A stretch of DNA of 57,824 nucleotides from Phoronis australis (lineage: Eukaryota > Animalia > Phoronida). The DNA lies in the NCBI GenBank assembly GCA_002633005.1, contig NMRA01000071.1, forward strand, positions 888,970 through 946,793, read 5' to 3'. Of this stretch, positions 1 to 27,314 are shown piece by piece (position 1 is the first letter of the stretch; each line of letters starts with the position of its first letter). The notes under the pieces are model-generated. The model ran no database searches, was not told where the DNA came from, and was given only the letters and a program-made list of their open reading frames with translations. The position numbers and the translations under genes were made by a program.

Positions 1-196
1 TACTAAGCTCTTTGGTGATTATTAGGTAACTTCAAACTCAAATTTCTCAAAAATGTGCAACTTTATATGTGGGAACTTTTTAGATTTTGAAAACACTCTA
101 ATAAATGAATTAAAAAACACCAAAATAAAATTGCCCCCCTAAAGTACTCATAAAAACCATTTTCTAGAGGCCCTACAAAATGTGGCCCACCGACTA
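1..196 (+). mobile_element. Right end of an Academ-like DNA transposon (continues left of the window)
   Basis: Near-identical to 49178-49373, ending in the same terminus ggcccaccgacta. Confidence 0.75.
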
Positions 197-989
197 TTCA
201 AGAAAAACTCAAACAATAACAACTTTTAACAACGTTTTTGAGATTTAATACTCAGTGATCATTAACCGGTCTCAATAGTGATACAGCCGCTTTGCTATAA
301 AAGTAACTTTTATATTTTCTAAATTTTGCTAAAAGGTGATGGGATTTCCTTATAGCTATCAAATTAAAAAAACTCTATAGGTTTTTTACTTTCATAAAAT
401 TTATGCTTTTAATTCTATAGTTGGTAGCTATTTGACGGAGTTGTCAATAAAATCCTACGTAAATTCAGTTTAGCAGGATTTGAAAGCCCGATTGGACAAC
501 TGTAACACAGGCAAGTTAGAGAACAACAGCTTCCCGTTGTACATGTATACATGTATCCATTGTAGCGCTGTGATATCCTGTGAACGCATTATTGTAGGAT
601 CTAACCGCTGGGGAAGGGTCTGGCAATGGGCCGGTATAGGAAGCATATCATGTTCCTCCACCATTACGATCTCTTGGTCGAGACTAGCCTAACTCGGTTT
701 CCACTGATTGCATCCTTAGGTATGCATGCGCATTATTTGTAGTTAAGGGAGTATTAAATTTACTACAGAACCCGAGCAAATAACACTGCCACTTCTGGAA
801 GTTTGGTGTAACTCAACCGAAACACCGGTTGATTGAGAGAACGATAGGGGAGTGCATGTTGTGTTGTGTTTCCTTGCACCTGAAGGTGGCGTATTGTAAT
901 GTTAGTGTGCGTGATAAGTGAATGTGGTACAAGATTAAATGGAGTGTTTGGGGGCAATTCTCCGCTGACAAGAGCAACCTCTTTCACAG

Positions 990-1175
990 ATGAGGAAGAA
1001 AGAACGACTCTGACCCTCACATCTGCTTTTGAGACAACAAAAACAACTACGGGAGAAACAGCGAGTCATTCAGAGGTCACAACGGCGGCTCACCTTTCAA
1101 CAACCGCCGATTACACATCTGCGCATTTCAGCTCATTCTCCAGCACTGGCAGGGCAACTGAGATTATGACGTCAG
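990..1175 (+). CDS. DEG/ENaC gene exon: Ser/Thr-rich mucin-like segment (phase 1-1)
   Basis: ctttcacag/ ... tcag/gtgac; (D)EEERTTLTLTSAFETTKTTTGETASHSEVTT...EIMTS; 186 nt. Confidence 0.7.
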
Positions 1176-4100
1176 GTGACATGGCGTTTATAAAGGGAAA
1201 ACAGAATATAATGAATGTTTGGCAGATTTTTTATATGTCTCTCCTAGGCACTTACATATTAAATATACTCTAATCATCCAGAAGTCCCGCCCCAGAAAAA
1301 ATACAATGGAACGTCATCCTACCGTTTTCCGTATTAGGTATATTGCTTTGAGAATATTTGAAACTCCTGGGCGTATGATCGTGCCCTCAAATTTCCCTTG
1401 AGAGGCACACGGTACATGCGTACATGTATAGGTATGCTCCGCCAAAGGGTCCTTAAACGAATACATTTCTTCGCGTTGAAGTCTGCTTGTTTAACGTCCA
1501 CCTTTGCTTAATCAAAGCGTTGTATCAGTTTTTCAGCGTGCTGAGTTCGTTCTTACACGAAAACTTTTCAGCAGTTATTCAGCGTGCAGAATTACACACT
1601 TATTCAACGCGTACTAATCCTTATTCAACGCGTACTAATGCTTATTCAACGCGTACAAATGGTTATTTAACGCGTACTAATGCTTATTTAACGCGTACAA
1701 TTAATCAGCTGAAGTAGTCAATCACGTCCTTGCTCTCAAATCTCAAAATGGTGGAATATGTTCTACACGCGTGCATGACCAGCAGTTTGGTGAGCAAGAG
1801 GTATGTTTAAAATACAACGCACTTAAAAATTCAATTACTTTTAATGTTTGATCTGAGCTTTCTCCTCTAGACCGTACTAATCACGTGTTTTGATTGGACG
1901 TTACGGATAACTAATTCAGCGCGTTCAATAGGCAACTCTCTGTCTTGTTTAACAATTTTGAGCGTGGAATAAGTGTAAAAAGATAATCGTTTAAAGTGAA
2001 ACTTCCACGATAATTATTCTGTGATTACTTGGTCAAATTAGAAACACAACATATAGCGACGACATAAATACGAATTAGATGGAAAATTGACAAATGTTTT
2101 TACGAATATGCCGTAAATCACTCAACCGTGTTCTGTAAGTATCGTTTGTGTTAGGTGAGCCCCCAAGCTCCGTCATTAGTGCAAAGGTTACCTATATGCG
2201 GAATGTTTTTTCACATTTTTATGTTATCTATTAATACGACTACACTTTGAATAGCGCATGTTAGATTTTGAAATAGCATTGACGTTTAGTTCCTACTATA
2301 GGCCTACGTTTGCATTTTTGGAGCATGCAAGTACACCTTCAAGAACAAATTCAGCCCGTTGACTACTCCTGCGTGTTGAATAAGCAATTCTTCGTGTTGA
2401 CTAAGCAACAGTTCGCGTTGAAGATTGTCGTTTTAAAACCCTTGGCGCTTCTGCAAGTTCAGTCATACGAACGGTCTCCAGCATCAAAATCAGCTTGCTT
2501 GCCGTATGACGTTGAAGGTCGTACATATGCAGATAACGTTTACCTACGAGGGTAACTTTTAGGCTCCGAAAATACACGAAGTGATCCAAAAGCGTTGTCA
2601 CCTAGAGACATCAGTCGAGTTAAAAGCACATCACCGGCAGGATATCGACTCCAGCCTAGCGCTATGACACGTATACGTACGCATTGTGTTCAGACCGTGC
2701 TATACACGCCTGTAGTGAATACGACATACCAAGGTTTATTGTGCACTTTTCAGTGATTATTAAGCTTTGATTTTGTGAATATTGACCACGTCTTGGTTCA
2801 ATTGGTTCTGGCTTACATATGTCTTCGGCATTTCTCACGCAAATGGGTCGAGTTAATACCGTTTCAGTGCCGATGAAAATTCGCTAGGTGGGACATCAAA
2901 TTCATCTGATTGTCTGGTTCTTCTTTAGTTTTACGCCCGTATTTACGTTCCTCTTTGTCTGAATAATTATTGACCAGTTCTCGCTCAGTATCGTCCTCTA
3001 CTGTGTTCCGCCATTGCAATTGAATGTCAAGTGACCAAACGTCTTCCAAACATTACATCATTTGGCGGGAAACTTGGAAATAATTATTTTTTCTTCCAAA
3101 GTAAAAACGTCGCTACCATTTGGCATAAACAGTGCCCATTAAGTTACATTTCATGATATTCATTTCATATTAGCTAACTAAAATCTCAAAAACTAAGAAA
3201 AATGCAAGGTGTGGATTCTTTTTAAAAAGCACGTCATTTGTACCGAAAGTATTTACGTGCACATCTTGTCGCACACGTGTATTTGGGGCTGACGTGAACG
3301 TTACGTGTCAACGGTATGTCACTAATGCTTCAAAATTTGAGCAATCTTAAAATGAAGGAAAAACCTGCTCATTTGTAAGGAATTATAAACAATGTTATGT
3401 ACTACTTTATACCCGACAACAGAGTCACCCGCGCCACCCGCGTCAACCGAGGAAACTACAGAAGAGGCACACACAACATCAAATTCAGAAGCAGAAATAA
3501 CAACGACAACAGGAGGCAATGAGCCGACAACAGAGTCGTCAACGTCGACAGCAACAGAGGCAGCCACCAGTGCGCAAGCCATAAAGTTGTCCACATTTAC
3601 TAGGACAACAACGACACAGTCACCTTTACCGACAACAACGCCGCCACCAACTAAATTCAACGGAAGATACGGAGACTGTCCAGGAAACGACATTATCACA
3701 CTTCAATCTCTTGGCATCAGCCTCACGGAGTGCGCCATTATCTGTGCCTCCAACCACGCATGCCTGTCGTTTGTGTTCTCTAAAGCAACTCCTAGCGCCC
3801 CTTCCGGAGACTGTTTCCCAAAGAATAGCACGTGCGAGACTGTTACCTCTGTTGAAGGGAAAGTGGTGCTCACCTATAACAAAGGTGATGTTCTATTGGT
3901 ACAACACTTAAGGATTTTTTTGAGAAAATCTGCAAACCTGGGTAGGACCGTGTCAAAGCTAGCTTCATGTTTTTGACCATGCAACCGTGATGTGGTTAAC
4001 ACCCCATTCATCCAAAAATCGCATTTTTTATGAAATTCAATAATATGCGGGATTCCTGGACCCTCCATGACTGTGCATATTCGAATGCCGAGATGAAACT

Positions 4101-7100
4101 TTGTTTCTGAAAAGTGGCAAACCGTAAACAACTTATCAGTAAAAATATTAACACACCGTTTAAATAAACGTATGCTCATGTCCAACATTAAGATAGACGA
4201 AAACGTTCCTACCATTGGAATGAGGAGAACTTTATTATCATCTTGTATTATTGAATCTGAAAATCATGTCGGACTTTGGGGCTAGAGAAGATCTCTCCTC
4301 ATGTGTCATTTGGCTGGATTCAGATGGACACATGTACTTTTTGAAGCCTTTCTTTGTGACAGTAAACTTCAAAGCTTTTATGCATTCTGAATTTCCCTAG
4401 AGCATGCGTATACGCCAACATCGTACATGTAGGTAAAGCATGTGCAACAGCCTAGAAGGCATATTCAACAATAACGAGACACTTCCCAGACATACATTGA
4501 ACTTGATCTCACACAAATGATTTTTTAGGAAATAAGAATGTTCAAATTACCTCAGTCAAATTTCTGGTGTGTTTCCATGGGACCTGATGACGCAAAATCG
4601 ACCACTGACACCCAGCGAAAGAAGCAGTCCTCAAGTAAAATGAGCAGAGCAATTCTTAACCCAACCTTTTTGTCACGCACGCGTATTATCGTTTTTAAAG
4701 AGTCGATACGCTACGCCAATATTTTGCAGGTTTTCTTAAAAACGCATCTTAAGTTAACTTTTCATGTGAGTTTTCAGACAGCTTAGGAAAATAAATAGGT
4801 ACACGTTGAGGTGCATTGTGAGTTCTTTTAACGATACGATGGTTAAACCTAAACGGTGAGTGTGTCTTTTCAACAAGGCGTCGGGCCAATATGTTAACTT
4901 AAAGAATGTCTTTGAAATATCGAAGAAAGTTAGTGATTTTTAAAGGCATAGCTTTATTTAATCATATGTTTTAGTATTAACTTGTATAATTGATCGTCTG
5001 TGTAAAGTTTTTGTGCACGTGGTCATATCCTAAACTGTTAATAAGGTCAACAATTTTCTAGTCATTCCAACGACTCCACCGCAAACAACAATAACACGTA
5101 CTACGTTAGGCGTGGCCCAAAATTTGACAATGCTTGACGTCACATATAGCCAGGATAGCACGACACCTCCGTGGTCGCTGGTGACAACTACAGGTACATC
5201 TCATTTACATGTAAAAGGAGCTCACTAAAATACGACATTATATTGTGGCCTTCATCGCAAATACTCGCAAATGAGACCGAGGTGCGCTTCAAACTTAGCT
5301 GGCTTCACAGACAGAAGATTACGTGTGACATGAATATTAATTAAATACATATAGAAGACCGCTATATTATCATCGAGTACACGTGTGGCAGGCATATTAA
5401 TTAAATACATATAGAAGACCGCTATATTATCATCGAGTACACGTGTGGCAGGCTCATGCAGTCCGGATAAAAGTTATACTTGTCAATGGCTTCTATAACG
5501 CAAATATTCAGCTTTATTCTTGTGCATGTTTTCCAAATATTCCAAATATTCCTCCACCAGAGTTCAGCTGTCCACCGCGTCAGTAGAAAAAAAAAAATTT
5601 ATGACAAAAACACACATTACTTGTTACTGCTCAGGTACATTGTGTGGGGAGCGTTTCGTAACGGCGGCCTCTAACGAGAGACGCTTGCATCGTGAAAAAT
5701 CGGAACAGAAATAGTATTCTCATTTCTCTGTTTGCACAAAACGCTACTGCTGTTCATAATGACTCGACGTTACAGTCAATAATTTCTTCCTCCATCTTCA
5801 AGCATTACATATGTCTTCAAAAACGATCACGGGCATCTGGTACACTCATGGTGCTCATTGGTTCTTGGCATGGTTGTCATCCAAGCAGTCTAACTGCTAC
5901 GTAGCTGAGTGATTTATAAAAGCGTACTAAACCTGGTTTTGACCTTACAATATATATTAACAACGACTTCCTCATCTATCTCCCTAAAAAAATCTATAGC
6001 CTTCGTTACACTGCAAAACTGTGAAGTGAATTTGAATACTTCAAATGTGGAGAAATCGTGAAAACATAAAATGTCCAGTAAACTAACAAGTATGCCCTAC
6101 ATGAGGTAGGTCGTGGTATACTGTAGATAGCGCTTTACTACACTACAGGTACGATTTAAAAGAATAACAGAATAAAACCCGTAGGAAGGATCATAATATC
6201 CAACCTGCAACATTGACTGATTAAGTGTTGTCAGTTGAAGGCTGGAGTGCTTTTGTCGCTTACATGTAGGTGAGACGCTAATGTTACATGAACAAGGGAC
6301 ATAACGAAGACTATCTGCAATCACCAAAACAGTGTTTTGAATCCTTTTGGTTTCACAGGAAGTCTGTAATACTTATCTCTTCTTTTTAGTCTAAAAGTTG
6401 TTTTTTAAGTTGTCGCTTGTCTGCTTGCTAAGACATCAGAAGACATTACCGTGTACCTTTGCGTACATAGCTTCCTTAATCTTTCTTTTAGTCCAGTTTG
6501 TTTCACTGTTTAGCATCCCACTGGATAATGTATACAGTAGGTCTGACCACATATGCTCTGATACTCCTGATGAGCTATCACCTTCACTACAACTTTTCTT
6601 GTGTTCCGCAATACTCGGCAGCATTCCATTGGCATAAGCGTTTAAGCCTTTGCCAATACAGGTCTCACCACATACTCTGGAATTTGCTAGGTGACGTTCT
6701 TGTTTGCTTCAATAATTGTTTTTGTTTCGGTTTCGTCGTCCCAGTATGTTTGAGCCACTGTACACACTTAATTGTCTTTAGAATATACATCGTATGTAGA
6801 ATCTTCACACTACCCTTTTTGTTTATGGCGTTTATCATGCGAGCACCGNNNNNNNNNNNNNNNNNNNNNNNNNNNNNNNNNNNNNNNNNNTTTTTTGTTT
6901 TTTTTCTTAATCCGCCCGCTTTATTGTTATCAAAAGGTCCACAACAACATCAGGAATTCGAGCCCCCCATATAGGAGGCTGGGTGCGCGCATGTTTATTG
7001 CCATTCTGTAGTTTAAAAAATTACCGCAATCATATTCGTTCTCTTTCATTTCATTTCCGAATGTTTAAAGTGCAATCTAGTTTTCCATTCTACCAAACGG

Positions 7101-10100
7101 ATGCCAGTGTGGTACTTGAAACGCTCGTTTTTACTGGAACTTTGCGCTATTTTGTTGGGTTTTTGCTCAGCGTGATCAACTGTGTTTAAATGAGTCTCTT
7201 AAAGCGTGTGGAACACCACACACAGACAAGTGCAACGTTACCTACGTGAAAACTTCACCTATGAATGGAGTGGAAACCGTTCACATGAAATTGTCACGAC
7301 ACCTCTTACACCTCAAGTTCCACTTACTGTACTAGTTGGTATGCCGGCCATTAGCTTCGAACTTTAGGCAAGAGTTCACACTCAACACTTCTCAGCTCCT
7401 TACTAAATTGCTATATGACCACTTGCATGAAGGGCGGATTCTTCTTGATTGTTGCTGGCCGTCTTCGTAATTCTGAGTCTGACATGTTTGACCTGTCTGT
7501 TGTAGTTTCCAGGTGATGATAGTGTTCAGCTCTTAAACTGCTGGTTTTTAGTTGGTGTTTGATGTAGCTGACCTCATTTGCAGTAATCCGTTTCCGATAT
7601 CAGAGGTGGCTAGTTTGTTGTCTAACTAACACCACTTGCTCTTTGCCATGGCTGAGGAACTTTGACTTTAATGTCACCAGGCTGATATCTCTCGCGTGCC
7701 GAATACTAATTTTTTGTTCCATACTCGGTTTTAACTGGTCCTTCTGTAAGCTTCTGCATGCGGTGTTTTCTTTGAGGAAATTCTGTTCAAATCATACGAA
7801 ATACGAAGCGATTTTTGGGTTACGAGTTCACAATGTGGAGCTGCGTCCCGGCTGGACTAGAGCTAGTCCTCAACCACCAGCAAGCATACTGCCAACACTT
7901 AAGTTTCACTCTGGAAGCACCGCGTAACCTGAGATTAACGTTTTTTGATGAACTGATGGCCAGGAGAATCCAAAACTTATTCTCTATTAAGAAAACTCTC
8001 ACTGTATTGACTACTGTAATTCCGACGAAATCAAAGGAGATAAGAGCGGTTAGTTCCTAGCATCAAACTCATAGAAAAATGCAGCGAACAACACTTAAAG
8101 CTGGGATGGACAACTTGGTTTGCACATTCAAATTGAATGATAACCAGGAAGAATTCATCGAAAAAGCAATACTTCCACAAGGAAAGGGTACGGAAAAAGG
8201 AGATCATACTCAGCAAACGCTGTGCCCTTCTCGTCTACACGAAGCAGATCATACTCGGCAAACGCTTTGCCCTTCACGTCTACATGAAGTAGATAATACT
8301 CAGCAAACGCTGTGCCCTTCACGTTTTTTATGAACTCAATAAAACTGGTTAGCACATGCAAGACATTTAAAAAAGAAAATAATGCTGTAGGTAGCTCAGA
8401 AACCTTGAGATGAGAGTACTGAGTAAAATAAAAGGAAAGACAGATACAAGGAAAAGAAGAACGTCATCTATCAAATCCGCTAAGATTGTGGTTACTCCCA
8501 TAACAACGATGAACTAAGGACATTGGATATGAGGATTGCTGAACACAAGAAATGTCGCAAGGAAGCCACACTATTTAATGTGTAGCATGTTGTGGCATGT
8601 GTATTGAAAGGGCCACAACATCTAAAAGGGTAACACCCAGATACTTGACAGTGAAACAGTATAGACTAAAATTAAGATCTAGGAAGCTATGAATGAAGCT
8701 ATGTGACAACGTCTTCAGGAAGACTAGCAACCTGCCAACCAACACGCGGCTTCCCTTTTAGGAAATAAGTGGTCTAGCGGCGAGAAAGCTGGACTGTCAA
8801 GCGAAATATCCATGGACCAAATCCCATTGCGCACCAGGAAACGTATAATTAGATAGCGCAATATAAGTACAACAAACCATCGTGCTGGTTCTTTTTAAGA
8901 ACTCTGTAACGCCAGAAGATGACAGGAGAAATGACCGACCGGAACGTCGTGTCAATGTAGCACGATACAGGTTGGTTTAAATGGACCAACGTACTTTACA
9001 ATTGATCTTATTTTATCTCCGCCGTAAGTAGGTTTCACAAAACCATTACACTTGTGTGTATAAAGTCAACAAATCAACGGACGAATAAATTACGTTGCAT
9101 TAGCGCAATCTCACGTGTTCTCAAAAAACTTGCAATTGGTCTTACAAAACGACAATCGGCATCCTAAAGTGCAACAAATTTTGAATTGAAGGAGACAACA
9201 ATTCATGAAAAAGACGGTCTTGCATGCGAGTATTTGCGTTATTTTAGATCATTGTGCTCATATTTTTACAAATAAGAATGATTAAAAAATTGCCCCAAGC
9301 CTACACATACTCTTTTGCTTGATCGTAATTTATAATAAAACACTATTATTTCAACCATTTCTATGATATGAATGGTTGCTCTCAATCCATACAGTTCTAT
9401 AACATGAATGGTGGCTCTCAATCCATACAGTTGATAATATACAATCCTGACGTTTATGATGCTTTCTTAGCACTGGTCAATTATATATGACTAAAAGAGG
9501 CTTTCCGAGAATTGTGAGTAATTAACATTGATTATCATCTTGATACGACTTCATGTCAACCAAAGGGCATGTGTGTGTAGACCTAGTATCTGTGCTGTGA
9601 CTCTGGCATGTTCTCAGGATGTTCAACTACAATGGACGATCTTTGAATCAGGGCAAGGTCGAGACCCGAGTGGAACAGTTACAATGTACATGTACACCGA
9701 CATGCAGTACAATCCAAAAGTAGTGAGACAAAGCCACGTAAGGTTCTCCATCATGACGGCTGGCTGGATGCCAAAATTAACTGCGAGAGTCTTTCCTCAT
9801 GACCGTCAACTAAGGAGCAGTATCAGCATAATTAATATGATGCCTTAACCTCCGTGGACTTTATGAAAACTGTCGCACAAAATACTATTGCCTCTTAGCA
9901 TTTTTGACGTTCACGCAGTTAGCCGTCATGACGGGAAAACGGTATTTTGTCTGATTACTTTTCTCTCATACAATGCATGATCAGCCAGTTTGCACAGATA
10001 ACTGTGTTCACTTATCGGGTGACGGCTATCGCACAGATTATAGTGTTCACGTATCCGTGACGGCTATCGCAGAGATTACAGTGTTCACGTAATGGTGTCA

Positions 10101-13100
10101 CGCAATAACATATTTAGGGTAGTCACCTACAGTATAGCGCCCTGATCGTTCGTGTTCGTAGGGGTGAAAAAGAATGCTCACCTCGCCTCCCTTGAACCTG
10201 TTTGGAGCTCGGTTTGTGAAATAGTGGCCTTCTTTCGGTCGACCGTCGCAACAGCACTGTTCTAGTCACGTGCAATCACCAAAATGTAAAGACGTAAAGT
10301 AGATCTCGTAACCCTGCTCAATGCCAAATAATGCCAAGTGAATCAGCAACATTGCATGCAAATTAAGATAAGATTTGGAAAATATCTGTTTCGATTTAAG
10401 GAAGTTCAACACAGATCTGCAGTTGGGTTTTTGAACATATCTGCGAAAATATGATAATAACTGAATTAGCAAAAAATCGTTACATCTGCACACACGTGTA
10501 CATGTCGAGAGGGTGATCCTGGGGGAAAACGGTTAAATTTACATGGGTGAAAGTGATACCTAAATAAATTCATGATTGAATTCCTGTCAAAAACAGGTTA
10601 ACATCGTTACAGGATTTCAGTTCTGTGATTAACGATTTTAGATAAATTTCCCTCTGTGTTGCACTATACTTCCCGCTGTGTTGCACTATATTTACCGCTG
10701 TGTTGCACTATATTTCAATTAATTGATGGTGTTTGCAATGTGAAATAAGATCAGGTTTTTGTAACTGGTGTGGATAATCTAACGGAAAAATTTCTTCTTT
10801 ACGTCACATTAAGTTCGGTGGTGGACAATGTACTCTGCAGCCTTTTTAAGTGCAAAAAAGCACCTATCAGGTTAGAGAACTCAGGTGACTTTCAAAATAA
10901 AAAAACAATGAATACAGCCAGTAACGTATTTTCGTCTGGCACGACGTCGACGCCCGCTGAAGGCCGGGCGTGGCTAACGGACCGCTTTCGACATGGACAC
11001 GGACGATCATGGGTGACTACATTGTAGTTGCTACGGTGTGAACAGTCACAGTAATCGGTTTGATTATTTGCAAGATGACGAGGATTATTGAAACAGGCGC
11101 CTGATTCCTTGCGTTGGCGTAGTTTTTCACCTAGTAACATAATCATGTGTAATTTTGTAGTAGAGAACCAAACACCATTAACGAGTAACACGACAGCGCC
11201 GTCTGTTGAGCCAACCACTGAAGCAGGTAAACAATTTGACTGACTACCCATACGAAGCTTGGATTTCCATTAGTTCAAGAAGTTTTAAATTTTTATTTTG
11301 GCTGAGTATACACACGTTATCAATAGAGAAGAAGTTAGACCGATCATGCGGAGTATTTATCGCATGAACTCTTAAGTAACGACAACAATATCTTCTACAA
11401 TCAGCTTGTTTTCAACATAGAGTAAGAATTATGATTCAATGATGTAAATATAGTATCGAGTTGCATTTCACCATGTTACTGAGCAACGGGTGATGGATTC
11501 CTCAAATATTGTTAACTATTTCCTATCCCGGGACGCACCATGTGCTTCATAACAGCGCCTATAGGTTTAAAACACGTAGTCATTGTTTTTGGTAAAATAA
11601 GTTTTCTTGAAAATAGGCATTGGATAAAATGGATGAATAGTTTCGTTATCGCTTATATTTTCTCATCCAAAAATTTCGCATTACCGGTATATTTCGATTT
11701 TAATAAGTCTTATTTCTTCAAATATCAAAACTGCAAACTCTGGACTTACATGTATGTAACATTCTTGTTGTCGACTGAATTTGAGGATTTACTCTACAAA
11801 GTTTTCAAATGGAGGTCGGGGCTACTTTTTCTTTCAGTTGAAATCCAGGCCCTCTCTGCAATGGAGTGTACTGAACAAATGCTTTGTTTACATGGTTCCT
11901 TGTGTACATGGCATTGATAAAGGTATTTAAAGTAGAAAGTCGCAATGTGATTACTTATTCAAGTAACAGCCGCAAGGACGGACTGTGGTTGAAGATGAGC
12001 TAATGTAATTATTTCTGCCCATAAAAGAGTGCTGTCTTACATGTTTAACATCTGTCAGGCCTACCAGGATACACGGCACAGCCCGGCTATTGTGATGACA
12101 TCTACGTCCTCTTCGCCGCCATTGATAACACGTCAAGCCCGCAAGAGTGCGCCAAAATCTGTGATAACATACCCAAACTTTGCAAAGGATTCGTCATGAC
12201 ACAGAATTCGCTGTGTAAACCGATACACGCCGTTTGCAAGGGGAAAATCTTATACAGTGAAAACAACGAACATACATTGTACATCAGAGGTATAATACTC
12301 ATATAAGTTGTCGGGCATAGGCACTAGTTTGTGGAAGGTGAAGGTCGCATTCGAATGGGAGTCTTGGCTTTAGGGGTAATTACTCCGGCAATAGCTAGTT
12401 CTAATACTCAATTCACCACTTTATTGAGTGTTTATAATTCCGGCGCATCGTTTACGAAATATTTTGTTAATTTCAAGTACGTCATGTGTGCAATCGAGTG
12501 AGATTTATTTTAGATGGTCATGCTTCTATAGTGCACTTTATGTTTTAGGTAAAAGGTGTTTCATTATGATCGTCTACACACACTTTTTGTTTCCAACGGC
12601 GTCTCCCAGCATTGGCTTCATTTAAAAATGGTTTAAATGTGCCATGGTTCGGGCGCTTCGTCCCGCTTCATCCCAAATGCATGCACATTACGGAAGGCAA
12701 TCACGAGCTCAGTGCTTAATGTTCTATAGATTACTTCTTCAGAGAATGTTAGTTTGCGCCTCCTCGTGGACTAAGCCGGAAGTTTGTCACTAACTCCCGG
12801 TGTTTACTGGTACTAACCTGAGGGAACTAAAGATGAGATGCAACGTTTTAACTGGCTTGAAAAACAGTGCAGCTGTTACTCTTGTGCTGGCAATTGATTC
12901 AGAAGTGCATTAACATTGTGTTACAGAAAACTAAAAAATACAGGGTGTCATAAACTATTGATGGTGACTCATCAATTTACTTCTTACAGCTGCATGTCGC
13001 TCCTTTAAGCAGAATGAAAACGATAATCCGCGAAAGCTGCCTTCCACTTTCAAAAATTGGGTCTCGTAGTTTCCTTGCAATGCTACTATTCCAGTTCCGT

Positions 13101-16100
13101 AGCGAAAATGAATATCGAAACCGTCATCAAAAATGCTTTAGAGTTCATTTAGATCGGCCAACTTCGGAACTTGTGAATTTGAGTATGGCGCAGCTACTCC
13201 AGTTGACTTTACTTGGTAACGGAAATGAAACCCTATCACCGTAAGGACAATTCTGACATTGATTTGCAAAGCTTAATTCGATTTTCGTTTCTTTAGACAG
13301 CAAAAAGCGATATGCAGTTTTAAATAAGTTTAAAGTGAAGATGTTGTACGCTCATGACAATATTCTTGAGAAGCTAAACCGTGAGTGATATTTTGAGTCA
13401 CACTGAACTATGAACTGTGTCATGCAATGTTGCACAAGTGTTTCTTTGAATCATTTGATTGCTGTAGCCTGGGTATCCTGACCACCAATATAATTGTTAT
13501 GGTCAGAGTGTCCTGGTATCGCCAGTCTATACCTCACCGGTATATCGATCCAGTCATTCAATGTTAGAGTAATTATGTTTTGGCGACGTCTTGACATGAA
13601 CCAGAAGAGAACCTGGGACCACTTGCGTGTTGTAGATTGAATACTGGACTAGAAAACATACACGTAGAGGTCGAATATGGACGTTTTCAGTTGTACCCAG
13701 AATTTCTGCTACGCCAGTGCATAAGAGCTTTGTTATACAGTTTACATGTCACTATTTAGGAGAAATTTCTGTTTTAGATCGTCGTCGTAGGAGGAGTATT
13801 GATTTAACAGAGGTAAGTATTGATAAAAATGCTACAAGAATGTAATGAGTTTCAGGCTGCAACAACGTTCTATAGAAAGATTCATAGAATACTCGCACAG
13901 TCGCGCTATCTCCTTCACCCAATTTGAAAGATGGCGTGAATTCAACATCATTATTTGCGGTGAATAAATATCGTATTTAATTTTGAAAAATATCATTTAT
14001 TGTTCAACAACGCCATTGATACGTGTTGTTTTAAGATATAATTAGAGGAAGCGTTTTTACTCAAGAGCGATCTCATCAAACTTCTCATTTCACTTTGCAC
14101 AAGTGCCATTATCTACAGGATCAGTAGAGTGAACTTATCCGGCGAACATTTTTAACCGATATCAACAGGTATAAATTAACATGTTATATTAATTAAAACT
14201 AGAATTCTTGTGATTCCCTGCAACTGTTCTACTGTACGGGGCACATGTAAAATTTAATCGCTCTTTCTGCTTCGTCTATGGATGAAATTTGAAATTACAT
14301 GTAATATCTGTATTACACTCTGTCAACATGACAACAACTTTATTTTGGTAATCTATTAAAAGTGCTGGTTTAGGTGTAGTTTTGGCAGTGCAACAACTTA
14401 ACAGCAGACCCAATAGAATGATGCTAAATATGACATAAGTTACGAATCGTGATCAAAAGACACATATGAAGAACGTTCAATGTGTGTACAAGTAACCAAC
14501 AGGTTGTCAAATCATGCAGCACCCGCTTATTGTAATTTCCGAAAATTTTCATAATTGCAGGCAACTCAAATATTGCGGGACAAGCGAGATACCCTTACAA
14601 ATCAGGTATGTGCATGTTATTCTACAAGTATGTGTTGTAGAAAGTACCTGACGAATGCATGTCCAACATGTACGACAACGAAGACAGGCAATACGTTGCC
14701 ATAAAGGCCTATGGTTAAATATTTTTTAAAAAAAATGATGACATGTAACAGGCAAAACAAGCATGTCGGTCGACTGCAAGTTGATTTTCATGTAGCACAG
14801 TATAGATATGTCCAGTACAGATATGTCCAGTACAGATATGCCCAGTACAGATATGGCAAGTACAGATATGCCCAGTACAGATATGGCAAGTACAGATATG
14901 TCCACTACAGATATGCCCAGTACAGATATACCCAGTACAGATATGCTCAGTACAGATATGGCACGTACAGATATGCTCAGTACATATACATGTATGTCCA
15001 GTACAGATATGCTCAGTACATATACATGTATGTACAGTACAGATATGCCCAGTACAGATATAGCACGTTCAGATGTGCAGTATGCAAGTCGTACGTAATC
15101 ATTCTAATCTTCTGACAAATCTCCATCGGCTACTTTAAGGCATTGTGATTTTCCAAACTTATAAAAGTTTCAATAACGATTTTTCTTAATTGTGGAAACT
15201 GATTCCTAAAGAATTTCGCGCAGCTATATACATGTACATGTATGAATGTCTTGGGCCGACAACTGAGATACCGGATGTCTAAACGAAGACTTTAAAACAG
15301 AATTTAATTACTGATATTTATTTATTTTTGTTTGGGGAACTCGAAATATGACACACGAATCCTTGAGTGTTGACCATAAAATAGTTCAAACTTGAAGTTA
15401 CCAGCAGCTTAGGTTTTCTAGAAACCAGTGTTTACAGAACAAAAACATTTTTACTTGATTTATTACTTACAATTGTGCTGTGATTATACAATCATCAAAG
15501 AATCAGAAATTTTGCACGTATTTTCTGGGTGTAATTGCTCACGCATACGGTGGGTTATAATGGACAATTGCTCTTCTAAAACGGCAGTGTGAAAGTACAT
15601 GTACTTGACGAAGGATGACGATACTGTACATATCACTATCCTGTACTTTCGGCAGACAACGCCCAGCTACACCGACTACACACTTCGACGCAAGTACTCG
15701 CAGGAATATGCCAAACTTCCGCCACGTGATCGCGTGGCTTTGGCTCATCAAGAGGAGGACTTCATAGTTGGTTGTTCCTGGAATGGCGAAGATTGTGATA
15801 TGTCGTAAATATCTTTTGTTTTCGTTTCTGTATTCCTTTACTTGGTTTGGCGCGGAATTGCATACCCCAAAGACTAGTGTTAGCACGCACGTGTGCTTGT
15901 CATATTTGGCAAATATCTATGTCAGTGAGTTTTACATTATTTTCATTTTCATAAAGTAGCCTGGCACCAAAAACAATGTATTGCACATCAATTCAGCAGG
16001 AATAGTTCCATGACGCAACACTCCGTTCTTTTACCTGACACTGTGAGACATGTAAATGTGCAAGAATTAACCTGTGACGTCAAATTACAAATACAATTGT

Positions 16101-19100
16101 ATTCCACGTACGCCAATCTTGGTACACATCAGATTGATCGCCTGAGTTTCTAGTTTTCTTCAACAATACGCCAAAGAACGATGCGAAAGCCTCATGGGCA
16201 CATTAAATTATCGAACAAAACAGTTGTCTTGTATTCAAAATGGCTGACACTCTAGTATTTGCCGGTGAATTTCCTGCTAAGCGCGCAGCAAAATATTTGC
16301 TTTTTGGCGGTATATTGCGGACCACAAATTAAACGTTTTTTGATTGTGATGAAAGAGAACCTGTGCGGTGTACTGTAATTTTGAGTCGACAAATCGCTCC
16401 GGCTTTGAGATACAAAACTCGTTATCACTAAGATACCTTCTAGGAATGTCCCGATGTGTGAAGTAACTTTTTGGAATGTGAGCGCGATCTTAGCGCTCGA
16501 CGCGCCGAAATTTTTCTCGAACACTGTTTCCCAACACCAGACTAATAGCGTACCCGAAACCGAACCACAGGATTGTCCATGTTGTGTGTCAGTTCTGTCT
16601 GAATGGCCTTTTAAGACGCTGCAATTGGACTGGGGTACTCACCTAGTCATCCCTGGTGTCGGTCGCGGTAGAATATTTCGATGCAATCTTCAAAATTCCC
16701 GATTCAAAAATGTCCGCATCGCAACACAGTAATGCATGTAAAGGGATTCCAGAAAAACATGGTTTTATTTTCGGCTTCTCACACATCATACTGTCGGCCA
16801 TATTGAAATCCAAAATGGCATCCACATTAAGGGTCAAATCACGTGTTTCACAGGTTTTTGAAAGAGTGCAAAACTTACATCTGGCGTCAAATTTCCACAC
16901 TTTCTCCAAACAGTGAGGATTCTTACTTACCAGTCGTATAATGGCGTGCAGTCGAGTCCTTGTTTCAGTAATTTCCCATCACTAACCGCTGAAATGACAC
17001 CCACCTGGTCTTCTTCAATTACAGTTTGATTACAAGTGAAAAACCGGAAACGCATTATAATGCCTCCATAGGTTTCTAAACATCATTGCATTCATCCAAA
17101 TCACACCCATGTCAATACATAAGCGACTACGAAGTACAAGTGTAACCCCTATACCCGTTAAAATGTCCATTGATGCCCCTCCTCCGTCAGACGGCTCATG
17201 CCACTCGGAAGCTCTGTTTAAGTAAGTCGTCGTTTTATGTTTTATTCACAGTACCATCTACCAGTTCCAGACTTACAGACTTGGCAACTGTTTCACGTTT
17301 AACCATGGTCGACAGAACACGACCGTGAGGAAGATCAGCAAGTCAGGCCCAGACTACGGTAATGTTTAGTTAACTGAACAACATGAATGATAAAATTACT
17401 CTGTAAGACAGTCGCTGTGAAACTGTAACCTGTGTAGGTGACTACTTGTAGGGTAATATAACGCTGTGAGACTGTCTTGCGTAGGTGACTTTGTCTATGG
17501 TGACACTCTGATACATCGTACTGAATACATGTAAGTGACTAATGTGGGGCTATGTCCAGAGTAGGTGATTGCATTCATGGTAATACACGGTGACTACACA
17601 TAATGCATGCATGGTGATGTGACGATGTGAGGCTTTGCCCAGTGTTGGCGTCTGCATCCATGGTAATATAACGCTGTGAGGCTATATACTGCGCAGGCGA
17701 CTATATGTGCAATATATCGCTGTGATTCTATATACTGCGCAGGTGACTGTATATGCAATATATCGCTGTGAATCTATATACTGCGCAGGTGACTGTATAT
17801 GCAATATATCGCTGTGAATCTATATACTGCGCAGGTGACTGTATATGCAATAAATCGCTGTGTGTCTACATGTATATACTGCGCAGGTGACTGTATATGC
17901 AATATATCGCTGTGAATCTATATACTGCGCCGGTGACTGTATGTGCAATATATCGTTGTGAATCTATATACTGGGCAGGTGACTGTATATGCAATATATA
18001 GCTGTGAGTCTACGGTATATACTGGGCAGGTGACTGTATATGCAATAAATCGCTGTAAGTCTTTAAACTGCGCAGGTGACTGTATATGCAATATGTCGTT
18101 GTGAATCTACATGTATATACTGGGCAGGTGACTGTATATGCAATATATCGTTGTGAATCTACATGTATATACTGGGCAGGTGACTGTATACGCAATATAT
18201 CGTTGTGAATCTACATGTATATACTGGGCAGGTGACTGTATACGCAATATATCGTTGTGAATCTACATGTATATACTGCGCAGGTGACTGTACATGTATG
18301 TGCAATACTGATATCGCCGAGACAATGTATTGCGTAGGTAACTTTTTGTACGGTACAATACATGTAGCACTGTAATACTTAGTAGTTGCTCGAAGATGAC
18401 TACTTTTATGTTAAAAATTGGTCCAAAATAGTCCAGTCTGCTGTTATTGAACAACTAAATCCTCCCACACTTACAAAATTAACTGCCTACGATCCTGGCA
18501 CGCGTGCATGCAGCTGTCATTTAGTTGAAGCTGGCGCCACAGTTTGACGTGCTTTGAGAAATGACTACAAGTTTATAACGAGAAAGGCGAGATCACTCAA
18601 ATCGTTTTGTACTTTGATCGAGCAAGACACTCGCGAAAAAGAAAAATCGCGAGAGAGAAAATGCTCTGGACCTTATTGGAGTAATGTGGCAAAATATCAG
18701 CCATTTAAATGATAGTTTTTGACTGTAATTTTAAATTGTGGATGATAGTCACTGTTTTATACCCATAAGCGAAGATGACTTGCCTCAGATTATTGGTTTG
18801 CTTCAACTGATCACCGTCCTGTTGTCCTCTAGGGCTTACATTGACTCTCAACATTGAACAGTACGAGTATGTGCCATCCATCACGGACACGGCAGGGATA
18901 CGTGTAGTGATACATTCTAAGGATGTCATGCCCTATCCAGCTAATGACGGAATAACTATTGCGCCGGGATTTGCGTCGAATGTAGGCATTAAACGAGTAA
19001 GTACAGTAGTAAGCATTACACGCATAAAATGCTGTTTTTTGTCACCTTATCGGTTTTAAAATGAATCGATGCTCACATTATCAGTGTTTTTGTTTGCTGT

Positions 19101-22100
19101 TTTGTTTTTTGTAATTAGATATGTCCCATTGTAAGTCTTTCATTGCTCCCTTTAATCATATTTAATTACATATAGTGGCGCAATGGCCAATCTCACAGCA
19201 AAGAGATCCTGATTAAACAACGTTATAAGAAGTAAAAAGAACTTCGTGTTTTTATTAACTATTCAATTACGACTGCAGGTTAGAAACGTTATAGGCAAAT
19301 TTATGTATTTAGTAAATTAGAAACAAAACTATCCATTATCATTTAGGAAAAGTAGAAAACTTGTAAAACCTTTTAAAAACTTTAAAGCATTCTGCCATTA
19401 ATTGAGTGTGACCAATGCCTTTTAAGGAACGTGTAGCAAGACATAAAGATCTGTTCACAACAAAACGACAGTATCAATAACATGATCAAGTTACATGTCA
19501 CAACTGAGATCTCCAAAACGCTGTTACAATTTTCAAAATTATTTACTTTTAATTATGTGCAACTCACCAGCCCCTTTAATGCAATAATGGAACATTTTCA
19601 AACAATTACTTTGATCAGAACGTACATGTATTGTAGAAATACAATGCCGACCAGTCTTTTCTGAAGTGTGATATTCTGAAGCTAAGTTTGAGCATTCTTC
19701 TGAGGTCCTACATTAACTAAGACTATCAACGTTCTAGATGTTCTGACATTGCACTGTTTCAGAGGGTAATTATCAGAAAGCCCGATCCTTACGGTAACTG
19801 CACCAGGCCAGAAGACGCCCTCTACAAGCCCAAATCCTACGGTTATTCTGTCAAGGTAAGAACTGCTCCCTACTGCATCGTTTTTTGTATTATAAAAATG
19901 CGATTTCTATCAAAAAAGAAAAGTTTCCTGGACCTTTCAAATCAATCCCTGAAATTTAAACATGTCATCTAAGTGTGCGCTTGATTTCAAAAACGTAATG
20001 CAAATAATAATACGGCTTCGGAAATCAGCTCATGAAGTTGTCATTCAAATTCGATTTCATAAAGAGAAAACGACCGTGTGGATGGGTTGTACATGTAACT
20101 ACACTGAAAGGCAGAGCATCTTCATAGTTGTTTCTAATACAAGCATGTTTTCGTTTGAAGGCTTGCTTAATGGATTGCCTCCAACGTTCGGTGAAGGAGC
20201 ATTGTGGGTGTCGCTATCCGTCACTGCTGTCTGATGAAGAAGTTACCCGGATGTGTGATGACATGCCTGGAGCTCATGACGGTAACTGTTGTTTATTAAT
20301 TTGAACATTGAAATGCTTCCACGTTTAAACTGCACTGCTGTAATCTCCGAGCCCACACTCGCATTACGCTCAGACTCCAAACCTACATGTACCGCGCCGC
20401 ATGCCAGAGTACACATTTCTAAGTTTGCTTCAAGCGTAAATGCAACCAATCACTTTTCGAGTACGGAAATTATTTCCTGAACGGAACTATTATCCTTGGG
20501 GGAGGGAAGGGGCTGTTACCAAAAACTCGTGTACTGTATGTGTATTCCAATAATTGACTAATTGAAGCGAAACTGCAAATGATTTTTTCAGATGAGAATT
20601 GACCCCTGCACATGCTCCACGGGAGTAGCACTTGTCGTTCACCTACTATTTGAAATAGAACATAAATAATAATAATAATAATAATAATATAAATAAATAT
20701 ATATCTTCACTTATAGAGGATAAAAAACAGACCGTGTGAAACTTATCTACCACATGGTTCTCGAAATTACAATAAATAGATAAAAAAATAAATAAATAAG
20801 ATGAACAATGATATGTACAGATGAATGAAAAATGAAATAAACAAGTTAATTAATATATACAATTTTTGACATGCATGCAGATATACAGTTAATTAGATAA
20901 TAAAAAAGTTATTAAGTTACTTCTAAATGCACGTTTAACAGTAATTGATTTGATACCTAATGGTAAACCATTCCAGGCAATCACTCTTTCCAACGAAGAA
21001 AACGAAGAGACAGTTGTTTTTATTGTCTACCGCCTTTGCACATCCGCTTTGCACAACAGGTTGTAATTTGTGTAAAATTGTGTATTGGTTGTACTATGAC
21101 ATTCTACAAATTACTTTGGAATTCCTGCAATAAAACATTACCATATCCTGGTACATGTACTCAGATTTTGGTCTATCTTTATGAAAGATTTGGGACAACA
21201 TTATATAACTTGTAACGACGTCACGTGCATTGAGATAATATCTTATGTTTCAGAGCTTTGCTTCCAAAGAATTCACAAGAAATACATTGAGGACACTCTA
21301 GGCTGCTATTGCCCGGAAGCATGCGAGTAAGTAAGCAAAAGATAAAAGTAAATTTAACCTTCTTGCGCGCCATAATTTGGTCACATCACGTTAGTCTGAA
21401 CTTGCTGATTTCTAAGAACACAATTATGAACTGAAGATAGTTAACTGGGCTAATGTACAACGCAATATGTAGTACCCTTAGCCACAAACATAGTGATACA
21501 TAATTTGATAAATAGCTCTTTTAAGTATCTAAGTACATTGTTTGGAAGTCTAACCGATTTCGTAAGTACACTGTAGGATCTATATAACATGTCAATGAAT
21601 TGGGGGTAAATATTGCAGTTTGTTTTCTTTGCAGATTTTGAGAAAACCTAATGGTTGAATTTTTCAAAGTGGCCGACAGTCAGATGGAAGGGAGATAAAT
21701 CTGCGTTTTGAGAAAGTCCAACTCATTCATAATGCCCCTATCGTAGATTGTTCCATATTGAGTCTCCTTAATAAATCGTCGGCATTACAGTAACGTGCCC
21801 AAGGGTGGCCTTTGAGTGCCGTCGTCTGTTCATTTCATTTCATTTCAACAGGTATCTTAGCGTACATAAATGACAAAACTTTCGCCTGTCTGTTTTAGGG
21901 ACGTCTCATATCAGATGGAGGTGTCTACTGCAAAGTGGCCTGCCGTGAATAATAGGGTAGATGTCTTGTTTATTGCAACACCCTTTTAACCTATTATTTT
22001 AAGCTCAGTTCCATAATAACACACACTACTCGTATGAAGGCCTCGTCTTCACTTTACGATATGTACATTAATACTTGGAGACTCAAAGGGAAAAGTGTAA

Positions 22101-24911: not shown

Positions 24912-27111
24912 GCACACGACACGTGGTTTACTACTACAATTAAGCGTGAGCTTTGTAGAAGCTAGAACTTTGCGAAAACGTGATCACGCAAGTCTTCGCG
25001 AGATATTACTGGGTATTACAAGCAAAGCACAAGTTTGGACTTGCTAGCATGATCGCCAGATTCTTGCGTCTACGAAAGTCATCATAGTTTGAAAGTCAAT
25101 GACCTCTTTCATCTTTAGCAAAATGGTAAAAGTAAAACGTGAATATAATGACGCAATATGTCGGGCCGAAGTAATAGCTTGCCTGCGTAATGAGCTTCGA
25201 ATTAGTTCAGATAACCCTTAATATATCTTTCTTGTTAGGAGCGGAAATCAAACGGGGAGTGTTTATTAAAAAGTTATGTAACACTCAGGTGTTAGCCTTG
25301 TAATGCCCTTAAAGAATTGTACCAACAAGTTTGTTGCACATGTAAACATTATTCTTAGAGATTGAGCTTGGAAAACGCATTGTCCTGATACTTATGCAGT
25401 TTTTAACGCTTGTGTTGCTTGCAGTTAGGGGGAACATTCCTTCAATAAACAAAATACGTGTCCCTAACGATACGGTGGTGATGGTGAGTATTTTCAGGTC
25501 GAAACTGACCTCAACGTTTATCGCCCAGGCATTTCTCAACAAGCACCCGTTGTGTAATTAAACGCACCGGGCGTTTTTTTTGTAGCTACATAGCGTTTAT
25601 TCACCTCTTGTCAACAGGAACGTTCATGGATACTCTTGCCGAACTTAGAGTTGCAGTTGTCAAATAAGCAGTAGCACGTTGCATCTCACTACGGCGACTG
25701 GGAACCACGCCACAATGTGCTCATCAAAAGGATAGTAAACCCTGTTTTGGTTATTAACATAATCTTAGTTCTGTCACCTGCTAACGTGTTATTGGTGTCA
25801 CACTTGAGGGATAAAAAGATTCAACAGAAAGCTTGTACTTTAGGCGTTAGAGATTGGATAGTAAGTTTCTTTCCCTACAGTTGTTGTGCAACTCGCCTAA
25901 AGCGTGTACGAGACTTTGCAAGGAGTTTTTAAACTTTGCTCCTAATTCTTGAGGGCTATCGATGGTTAGAGAGTATTATTTTATTTCAGAAAACTCATTG
26001 GTTTGATAGGCTTTTGGAAATCTCTTAACAGGCCAAAACAGGCTTTAGTATCCTTTTTACTATAATCTGAACTCTCCCATATTACTTTTTGTGGTGAATA
26101 AAACTATAAATTCAACTTAGTGAATTACTAACAAATACGCAAAACGTCTTCCATTTCGAACATCCGGTTCCTCCGTAGATTTCACATCGACTTATGACCT
26201 AAATACATCACAGCCTTACAAGTAGCGCCACCATCTGAGAGGAGGTCAAATACAGCGTAATAACATGGATGACTGTAATGCCAGTGTGTCCTCTGATGCT
26301 TACAAAATACTTTGTTTCGCTTGCATAAAAATAAGGTGGGGCAAGTGTATATTCATTATATATTCCATACTACTATTGGCAAGTGATGATCGGAGAACAG
26401 GGGTCAGTACTGCAGTAGAATATTAATAGTAACAGGCCTACCTATTAGGAATAGTAACTAGTAGTTGACAATGCTGAGGCCCACGGCATTGTCGTATGTG
26501 TCTCATTCGGTAGTGGCTGCACATCTTCTGCCAGGAATGTAACAAAATTGAAGTGGAGTTGCATCAGCTGTGTTTGGTTAAAGAAGACTCGTCTGTGTGT
26601 AGTCTACAGTTCAGGTTACAGGGTCAGACCCAGTGTACTGGTCAGCTGGCCTTGTTTACTATGTGAAAAGTGGGGTGAGATAGCACTTACATGGCCAGGT
26701 AGAATGTTTGCAAGCTTTCACAAGCCAATGATGTTGTTTGTTGGCGTGTAGGCTATTTCTCAGTGTATGGTTCAATTTTAGTTGTGCGAGTTGGGTGCAG
26801 AGTATGCATAGATCTGACCTAGCAGGGAAAGCCTGAGAAGAGCTACATAACCTGCAATTGTGTATTCGCCATATCCAAGAGGAACAATTCACTTATCAAC
26901 TAAAATAAAAACTGTTGTTTTAGTGTAAACAGTCTGATTTGATGTGTTAGTATCAAGTTCCCAGGCACTACTCTGCATTATCACAGGATACGCGTGCCTC
27001 TTGCTGAATAATATGTACCCTAAACAGGGATTATTGAGTCAAATTCTTTCTCAGAACATTAAACGAACCTTATTTTTGATACATTCCGCTGTACCCACAC
27101 AGCTTGTTTCC

Positions 27112-27314
27112 CATGCCCGCATACAAGGGGCTCTGGAGCTCAAACGAGCCCCCTATTTGGCGTAGTAGGCAAAAAGGTTTGCCCCAGAGAAACAAAAACT
27201 CCGAAAAAAGTAAAAATTGATACAAAAGTCCACTTCCACCAATCTTTTCTTAGTTATAGGTACACATTCTCATAAATTCGAGACCCCCATTTTTAGGCTG
27301 GGTGCGCGTGCATG
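27112..27314. mobile_element. MITE, CATGCGCGCA family
   Basis: Reverse-complement similarity to 33132-33384; ends tttttaggctgggtgcgcgtgcatg. Confidence 0.6.

Follow-up and report, generated by a model that had tools for sequence, protein, structure and literature searches.

Does a DEG/ENaC channel gene of the phoronid Phoronis australis carry receptor-type modules inside its own finger domain? The question is raised by a stretch of 57,824 nucleotides (contig NMRA01000071.1, positions 888,970 to 946,793; hereafter the window), intron-rich animal-type DNA of 39.8% GC, for which a first-pass annotation had proposed five exons encoding a mucin-like stalk with two PAN/Apple modules, joined through three short linker exons to a DEG/ENaC channel at its finger position. 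We find that the gene splices a PAN module onto a DEG/ENaC core, likely together with a glycosylated stalk that bears a second PAN module. The two modules are referred to as PAN1 and PAN2, PAN2 being the one next to the core.

PAN2 is fused to a DEG/ENaC core

Four RNA runs (X1 to X4) were aligned to the window, X1 as assembled contigs and X2-X4 as raw reads (18-19% of each). One X1 contig of 1987 nt (depth 58.6) begins at 12095, inside the PAN2 exon, and crosses the GT-AG joints 12289/13778, 13812/14561 and 14605/15656, each with at least 37 letters on its shorter side. The same contig extends over 18833-18996, 19763-19855, 20161-20281, 21254-21326, 21899-21956, 23722-23804 and 24629-25480, and holds an open frame of 479 residues from PAN2 to the stop codon at 24909-24911. 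Because it runs from the PAN2 exon to the stop, PAN2 is joined to the core without an exon for the first transmembrane helix (TM1) between them; the claim that neither TM1/HG nor PxVTxCN is encoded between 12289 and 15656 is borne out, a TM1 exon there being ruled out by this contig. Raw reads of X2-X4 gave almost no depth on the exons of the gene, which we take as no evidence either way; single reads of X3 or X4 show three of the six 3' core joints. The exons from PAN2 to the end of the gene are:

12059-12289, plus strand: exon encoding PAN2 (first to sixth Cys at 12091-12237); Pfam PAN_4 E=0.0053, ESM Atlas PAN 0.95, donor 12289 in the X1 contig
13297-13380, plus strand: possible cassette exon of 84 nt, phase 1-1, open, good splice scores; skipped in the RNA form seen
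13778-13812, plus strand: linker exon with a five-Arg run (13780-13794), the first furin-type motif; X1 contig joints on both sides
14561-14605, plus strand: linker exon with R-x-K-R (14576-14587), the second furin-type motif; X1 contig joints on both sides
15656-15804, plus strand: first core exon, finger end and CxWxGxxC motif; in the X1 contig, ASC profile positions 126-166, E=0.081
17252-17358, plus strand: core exon with the GNCxTFN motif; fits 106 contig letters between contig positions 424 and 531, and a loose end of the contig matches the exon 3' end
18833-23804, plus strand: six core exons for palm, beta-ball, Cys-rich thumb and knuckle; six GT-AG joints in the X1 contig
24629-24911, plus strand: last coding exon, with the second transmembrane helix (TM2), G-L-S at the G/S-x-S filter position, a short cytoplasmic tail and the stop at 24909-24911; ASC match
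24912-27893, plus strand: 3' untranslated region; same contig to 25480, X1 contigs 26053-26567 and 27335-27893 at similar depth, AATAAA at 27988

The junctions proposed downstream of PAN2 stood in part: 13812-14561 and 14605-15656 are present in RNA, and 12289-13297 and 13380-13778 are replaced by the direct joint of 12289 to 13778. Linker exons 13778-13812 and 14561-14605 are therefore retained, while 13297-13380 is skipped and has no coverage of its own, so that three obligatory linker exons are ruled out; the skipped one may be a cassette exon.

Exon 17252-17358 was not aligned directly by the X1 contig. The RNA-supported frame holds CxWxGxxC, GNCxTFN and ten thumb cysteines, with filter and pore motifs intact, and the joined core matches a profile of four relatives at E=9e-38. 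TM2 has the conserved Asp and the Gly motif besides the filter; its exon matches Pfam ASC (PF00858) at E=5e-17 (62.5 bits vs a cut-off of 23.6) and, in the PDB, FaNaC1 (9e-12), ASIC1 (3e-9) and ENaC gamma (8e-8); two of the six exons in 18833-23804 match ASC as well (E=1.7e-9 and 0.0019). Among the allele differences listed, six of seven in core exons are silent and one changes Glu to Asp; of six outside the core, one is silent and five are changes in insert, linker and tail. The 3' untranslated region probably extends to about 27.9 kb. Introns of the gene hold tandem arrays at 14798-15061 (15-bp units), 17683-18296 (46-bp), 22606-22730 (30-bp) and 23372-23548 (15-bp).

Upstream of PAN2 the insert is modelled from these features:

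990-1175, plus strand: predicted Ser/Thr-rich (mucin-like) exon, phase 1-1; open frame, 46% Ser/Thr/Pro
3423-3884, plus strand: exon with a Ser/Thr/Pro-rich stretch followed by PAN1 (first to sixth Cys at 3677-3835); Pfam PAN_4 E=9.4e-6, donor 3884 in an X1 contig
5062-5193, plus strand: exon with a Ser/Thr/Pro-rich linker; joint 3884/5062 in an X1 contig, donor predicted, good
6849-6890, no strand: assembly gap of 42 N within the proposed intron separating the PAN1 and PAN2 exons; from the sequence
11161-11226, plus strand: predicted short Ser/Thr/Pro-rich exon (acceptor 11161 or 11164), 52-55% Ser/Thr/Pro

All five insert exons are open, AG/GT-bounded and of phase 1-1, as the first-pass annotation had stated in finding no stops or phase conflicts. 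A second X1 contig (244 nt, depth 13.4) covers 3694-3823 and 3840-3882 and shows the joint 3884/5062; it changes strand between 3694 and 3840, which is probably an artefact of the library or of the assembly. The joints 1175/3423, 5193/11161 and 11226/12059 come from phase, composition and splice-site scores: exon 990-1175 has an acceptor in the top 7% and a donor in the top 10%, and 11161-11226 ranks fourth by splice score among 18 candidate phase 1-1 exons. A stretch of 120 nt at 9618-9737 has a strong acceptor and donor (top 1-2%), is open in phase 0 only, which leaves it unfit for the phase-1 chain, and has no X1 coverage. The proposal that the PAN exons are spliced to the channel thus holds for PAN2 with the core, TM2 and stop, and for PAN1 with 5062-5193, and is without RNA for the link between the two. 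We infer that PAN1 is linked to PAN2 across the 42-N gap, and consider it likely that all five insert exons belong to one transcript; the gene model minus its N-terminus comes to 760 residues.

PAN domains bind proteins or glycans. The two modules here have six cysteines each, show the PAN/Apple pattern of a C-x3-C core and hydrophobic strands, and match PAN families only, in keeping with their first assignment; both score under the curated Pfam cut-off. For PAN2 the top ESM Atlas match is a PAN cluster (0.95), with ten of the ten best named matches in one clan; there is a weak match to a factor XI apple domain (E=0.36), and a single-sequence AlphaFold model of PAN2 (pLDDT 47.9) was not used. 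The Ser/Thr/Pro spacers measure 136 residues (51% S/T/P) and 66 residues (50%), both Cys-free. Across the four rich stretches the content is 46-57%, which 0.2-1.1% of stop-free 21-residue windows equal in six frames; this composition suggests that the stalk would be densely O-glycosylated. The mucin-like exons hold no tandem repeat array. No LDLa repeat was found in the 195 window frames scanned, the start of the insert lying outside the window, and no EGF match in the frames scanned of 1-15660, the N-terminus of the protein likewise lying outside.

A search of the window for upstream TM1/HG and PxVTxCN exons, by ASC scan and with the N-terminal profile of relatives, found none: 0/195 plus-strand open frames of at least 25 residues in 1-15660 match Pfam ASC at E<=0.5, and a profile built from the N-termini of four relatives gave nothing above threshold for HG, TM1 or PxVTxCN in six frames of the window. 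Scans of this kind detect short exons poorly: a true core exon gave no ASC match. Within the DEG/ENaC family the GNCxTFN cysteine pairs with that of PxVTxCN; in the window model it has no partner, which argues for an upstream PxVTxCN exon, and the acceptor at 990 implies further exons upstream. TM1 and the PxVTxCN strand therefore very probably lie upstream of the window. Positions 1-196 are a dispersed repeat, 95% identical to 49178-49373, which suggests an assembly or contig edge.

Relatives with modules in the finger and the origin of the insert

The TM2 exon was searched against 1.84 billion representatives, giving 1443 matches, of which the best 150 were listed; 59 of these have at least 430 residues and are termed long relatives. 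Identity to the TM2 exon is at most 57% among the best 150 of the 1443 matches, and no close orthologue was found among the matches listed. A word-index protein search with single exons returned no match, a weak negative, since the unindexed search gave 1443 relatives.

LDLa, kringle, SRCR, F5/8C or PAN modules occur in 11 of the 59 long relatives (P0028, P0034, P0061, P0073, P0087, P0092, P0108, P0119, P0126, P0129 and P0148). PAN_1 scores above its cut-off in three, all hemichordate: Saccoglossus XP_006821452.1 (LOC102804529) and Ptychodera XP_070544098.1 and XP_070537889.1, each with the RefSeq name 'uncharacterized'. HG, TM1 and PxVTxCN precede the modules in all three PAN-bearing proteins and in 6/11 module-bearing ones, and in the three the core follows; this agrees with the finger position given to the insert at first reading. 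These three proteins resemble the window gene in having PAN between the PxVTxCN strand and the CxWxG/GNCxTFN core, with one TM2, and differ from it in that their insert opens with LDLa, adds kringle or F5/8C and has no furin motif. The module-bearing relatives, hemichordate and echinoderm (10 of the 11 named), combine LDLa repeats with kringle, SRCR, F5/8C or PAN and reach about 1230 residues; some are named LRP2-like or uncharacterised.

A supplement of PMC10507113 (MOESM5) was judged by eye over the first 400 residues of entries 987-1068 (parts 48-52 of 53). Within that portion, a PAN-like module follows a PxVTxCN-type motif in 6 of 82 entries (three Ptychodera, three Platynereis); one of the Ptychodera entries matches XP_070544098.1, and there is one further partial Platynereis model. 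In the same entries one amphioxus and one Owenia model have a long insert that is rich in Ser/Thr and contains basic motifs, while WSC and kringle-like parts occur in Macrostomum models. The terms LDL, kringle, PAN, apple, WSC and mucin do not occur in the main text of PMC10507113. A short-motif search of part of the supplement files (1074 sequences, sequence lines to 400 characters) did not find the window gene. In the full-text literature searched, which leaves most subscription journals outside, we found no description of PAN or other modules in a DEG/ENaC finger. The uniqueness implied at first is therefore not supported: DEG/ENaC proteins with PAN in the finger are present in RefSeq (Saccoglossus, Ptychodera), and none was found described or characterised. 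The locus is a real PAN-channel fusion, likely an independent variant of a module-in-finger design that is already in databases and seems undescribed. The survey brings to light a whole group of invertebrate channels, so far uncharacterised, that carry receptor-type modules in the finger loop, a part trimmed away in phylogenies.

The best core matches, at 33-40% identity, are module-free ENaC-like channels (Owenia CAH1796507.1 and CAH1796191.1, Glandiceps XP_077994420.1, Haliotis XP_071102852.1, Diadema XP_071488689.1 and Ptychodera XP_070558969.1), whose finger is low in complexity, Ser/Thr-rich and polybasic, often with R-x-[KR]-R; unlike the window gene, they have no folded module there. 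By its motifs the core resembles amphioxus and Owenia channels of the ENaC side (clade B, as named in PMC9822975 and PMC10507113).

Did the window gene inherit its modules from the same source as the hemichordate proteins? In the core tree the 11 module-bearing proteins form one clade (99/97), joined by two module-free sisters (100/99, 13 in total), and the window gene falls outside it. Grouping it with the 11 is rejected (approximately unbiased test, p-AU 4.6e-5; 23 rows, LG+G4), which rules out descent from the LDLa-module clade, and a quick tree of 61 rows excludes it in the same way. The 61-row tree leaves out 14 of 74 candidate rows, which covered too little of the core, and the 23 rows were chosen after that tree had been viewed; no vertebrate ENaC was knowingly included in either. 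The end branch of the window gene is long (1.04) and its best core identity is 40%. Nine PAN stretches from hemichordate proteins are without the outer Cys pair, and their profile gives PAN1 1.9 bits and misses PAN2. Because the clade excludes the window gene and the hemichordate PAN stretches are of another type, the insertion here is likely to have been independent; the alternative would be one gain with later losses and replacement. Phase-1 exon shuffling appears to have brought the insert into a loop whose counterpart in close relatives is already rich in Ser/Thr and polybasic.

Among 79 metagenome loci with TM2 relatives, most of them short or partial, tblastn gave no match to the PAN or mucin part. 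Host-derived metagenome contigs (L001, L002, L005, L010, L037 and L055) hold intronless DEG/ENaC frames of 500-650 residues; L037 has two and L055 three in tandem, and the frame of L010 is split over two reading frames.

Furin-type motifs, the proposed tether and its rivals

Directly after PAN2 stands the five-Arg run, and R-x-K-R follows 15 residues on, each in its own small exon; the first-pass annotation did not mention these motifs. Only 0.2% of insert shuffles reach two furin-type clusters. Finger motifs could be analysed in 39 of the 59 long relatives, 32 of which are module-free with a measurable finger. Ten of these 32 have at least one furin-type motif (P0008, P0016, P0019, P0036, P0048, P0054, P0060, P0076, P0106 and P0111), vs 0.96 expected, and four have at least two, vs 0.01 expected. 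Module-free ENaC-like relatives thus show an enrichment of about tenfold for such motifs in the finger, and pairs occur in Ptychodera and Diadema, so that, at the level of motifs, land vertebrates are not alone in having paired sites. The occurrence of such pairs in channels of marine invertebrates bears on the origin of cleavage activation. In ENaC, double cleavage at polybasic tracts of the finger region activates the channel by releasing an inhibitory peptide (PMC8791634). Vertebrate ENaC alpha and gamma (GRIP domain; PMC8791634) share with the window gene two polybasic motifs around a short finger peptide and the G/S-x-S filter; they have no PAN or mucin insert, and the window gene tail has no PPxY, the PY motif of the ENaC C-terminus.

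We propose that the gene encodes a DEG/ENaC subunit with a mucin-PAN-mucin-PAN insert in its finger, an architecture that, taken by itself, we consider likely. Furin would cut just behind PAN2 and drop the 15-residue peptide as in ENaC; from the motifs, cleavage at the two sites seems rather likely to occur. After the cut the insert would no longer be a loop but an arm with one free end: the mucin-PAN cassette would be held only at its N-terminus, and PAN2 would form the tip. The palm sheet and the conserved disulphide would keep the N-terminal piece within the channel, as is established for the DEG/ENaC family. The O-glycosylated arm would then bind mucus or matrix, pull on the finger and set open probability. 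Given the rest of the model, an O-glycosylated arm that works as a tether has, in our view, about an even chance; for the whole chain of cleavage, glycosylation, binding and gating we are a little more doubtful than that. It has long been asked how DEG/ENaC channels connect to material outside the cell in order to sense force, and the tethers proposed for ENaC, by which it senses shear, are N-glycans that connect it to the matrix (PMC6955349). In FaNaC1 the finger is the gating ligand site and moves the thumb on gating (PMC11026163). FaNaC1 (PDB 8ON7) and ASIC1, the best solved-structure matches of the window TM2, have the finger as gating site; unlike the window gene, their finger is compact, has no insert and responds to a small ligand or protons. 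Where a subunit bears a stalk and binding modules of its own on the gating finger, the tether model would become testable by deletion of a single cassette. A wider generalisation seems on the unlikely side: that bilaterian invertebrates have repeatedly plugged modules into the finger loop, PAN having entered it independently at least twice, and that here a furin cut behind PAN2 turns the insert into a free-ended, O-glycosylated tether by which mucus or matrix pulls the channel open, ENaC-style double cleavage having arisen in parallel outside land vertebrates.

Several observations weigh against the proposed arm. Six of seven complete module-bearing relatives are without a furin motif in the finger; since most lack it, modules do not need cleavage. 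PAN_4 scores stay below the curated cut-off of 27 bits for PAN1 (26 bits) and for PAN2 (17.2 bits). The 5' end of the gene lies outside the window. Acceptor 3423 is weak, 52% of AGs scoring equally well, and has no RNA confirmation; no X1 contig covers 990-1175 or 11161-11226 or links PAN1 to PAN2, between which the N gap falls; the PAN1 contig is the one with the strand switch; and the PAN2 joints come from a contig of one run (X1). The shear tethers of ENaC map to palm and knuckle rather than finger (PMC6955349), and in the literature searched no functional data were found for any module-in-finger channel. The fusion type is, moreover, already in databases, and the function given to it here is a prediction.

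The same architecture could serve in ligand capture, the PAN modules taking up a putative soluble macromolecule (a glycoprotein, a protease or a microbial glycan) and the channel being gated when that molecule is bound or cut, as a chemoreceptor and not a mechanosensor. Relatives fill the loop with recognition modules (LDLa, kringle, SRCR, F5/8C, PAN), and the ligand role of the finger in FaNaC1 (PMC11026163) points the same way; but spacers of 136 and 66 residues would presumably transmit ligand binding to the gate poorly without a contribution from force or clustering. We regard this as unlikely, if worth keeping in view.

Improbable, in our judgement, is a passive insert: a shield, autoinhibitory piece or localisation tag on a protease-activated or constitutive sodium leak, with PAN binding that does not gate. 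The loop evidently tolerates bulk, as the low-complexity fingers with furin motifs of module-free relatives (10/32) indicate, and double cleavage alone activates ENaC (PMC8791634); yet two folded six-Cys modules have been kept, and folded modules were gained in the finger loop more than once.

It is decidedly improbable that only PAN2 belongs to the channel, with exons 990-5193 forming a separate upstream mucin-PAN gene or rarely used cassettes. This would fit the lack of RNA across 5193-12059, the N gap between, and the depth of 13.4 for the PAN1 contig vs 58.6 for the channel contig. The phase 1 ends nevertheless match, the donor at 5193 is good, exon 11161-11226 is Ser/Thr-rich and well scored, and no alternative 5' exon for PAN2 was found in the window; the falling depth would also fit 3' bias.

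There remains the topology of C. elegans EGAS-1 to EGAS-4, a named case of DEG/ENaC proteins fused to extracellular modules (PMC9478639); their modules are EGF and not PAN and stand N-terminally behind a signal-like stretch. A very remote prospect is an accessory or decoy subunit of this kind, with a signal peptide, mucin and PAN modules and a C-terminal channel half with TM2 only: no TM1 was found in the window, the EGAS proteins, judged by eye over their first 400 residues, have EGF repeats and a hydrophobic stretch at the start and by themselves yielded no current (PMC10424705), but the window has no signal peptide or fitting start, the topology occurs in 0/59 long relatives (14/59 are without the PxVTxCN motif, 0/14 with a signal-like start), and pore and filter motifs are intact.

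Neighbouring sequence in the window

On the minus strand, 34837-55419 holds a neighbouring gene in which Cys-rich EGF-like exons recur and which also encodes a hydrophobic helix and a long tail; it has one EGF_STAB1-2 match (E=8e-4), and we take it to be MEGF10/SCARF-like. Parts of 41664-43753 are repeated at 53350-55139 with 71-78% identity. At 45660-47632 about 2 kb lie between 180-bp inverted repeats (91%) and contain a THAP-domain frame (46438-47283, minus strand, E=2e-8) and a P2RX7_C-like frame (45947-46315, plus strand, E=6e-5); this element is likely a DNA-transposon derivative.

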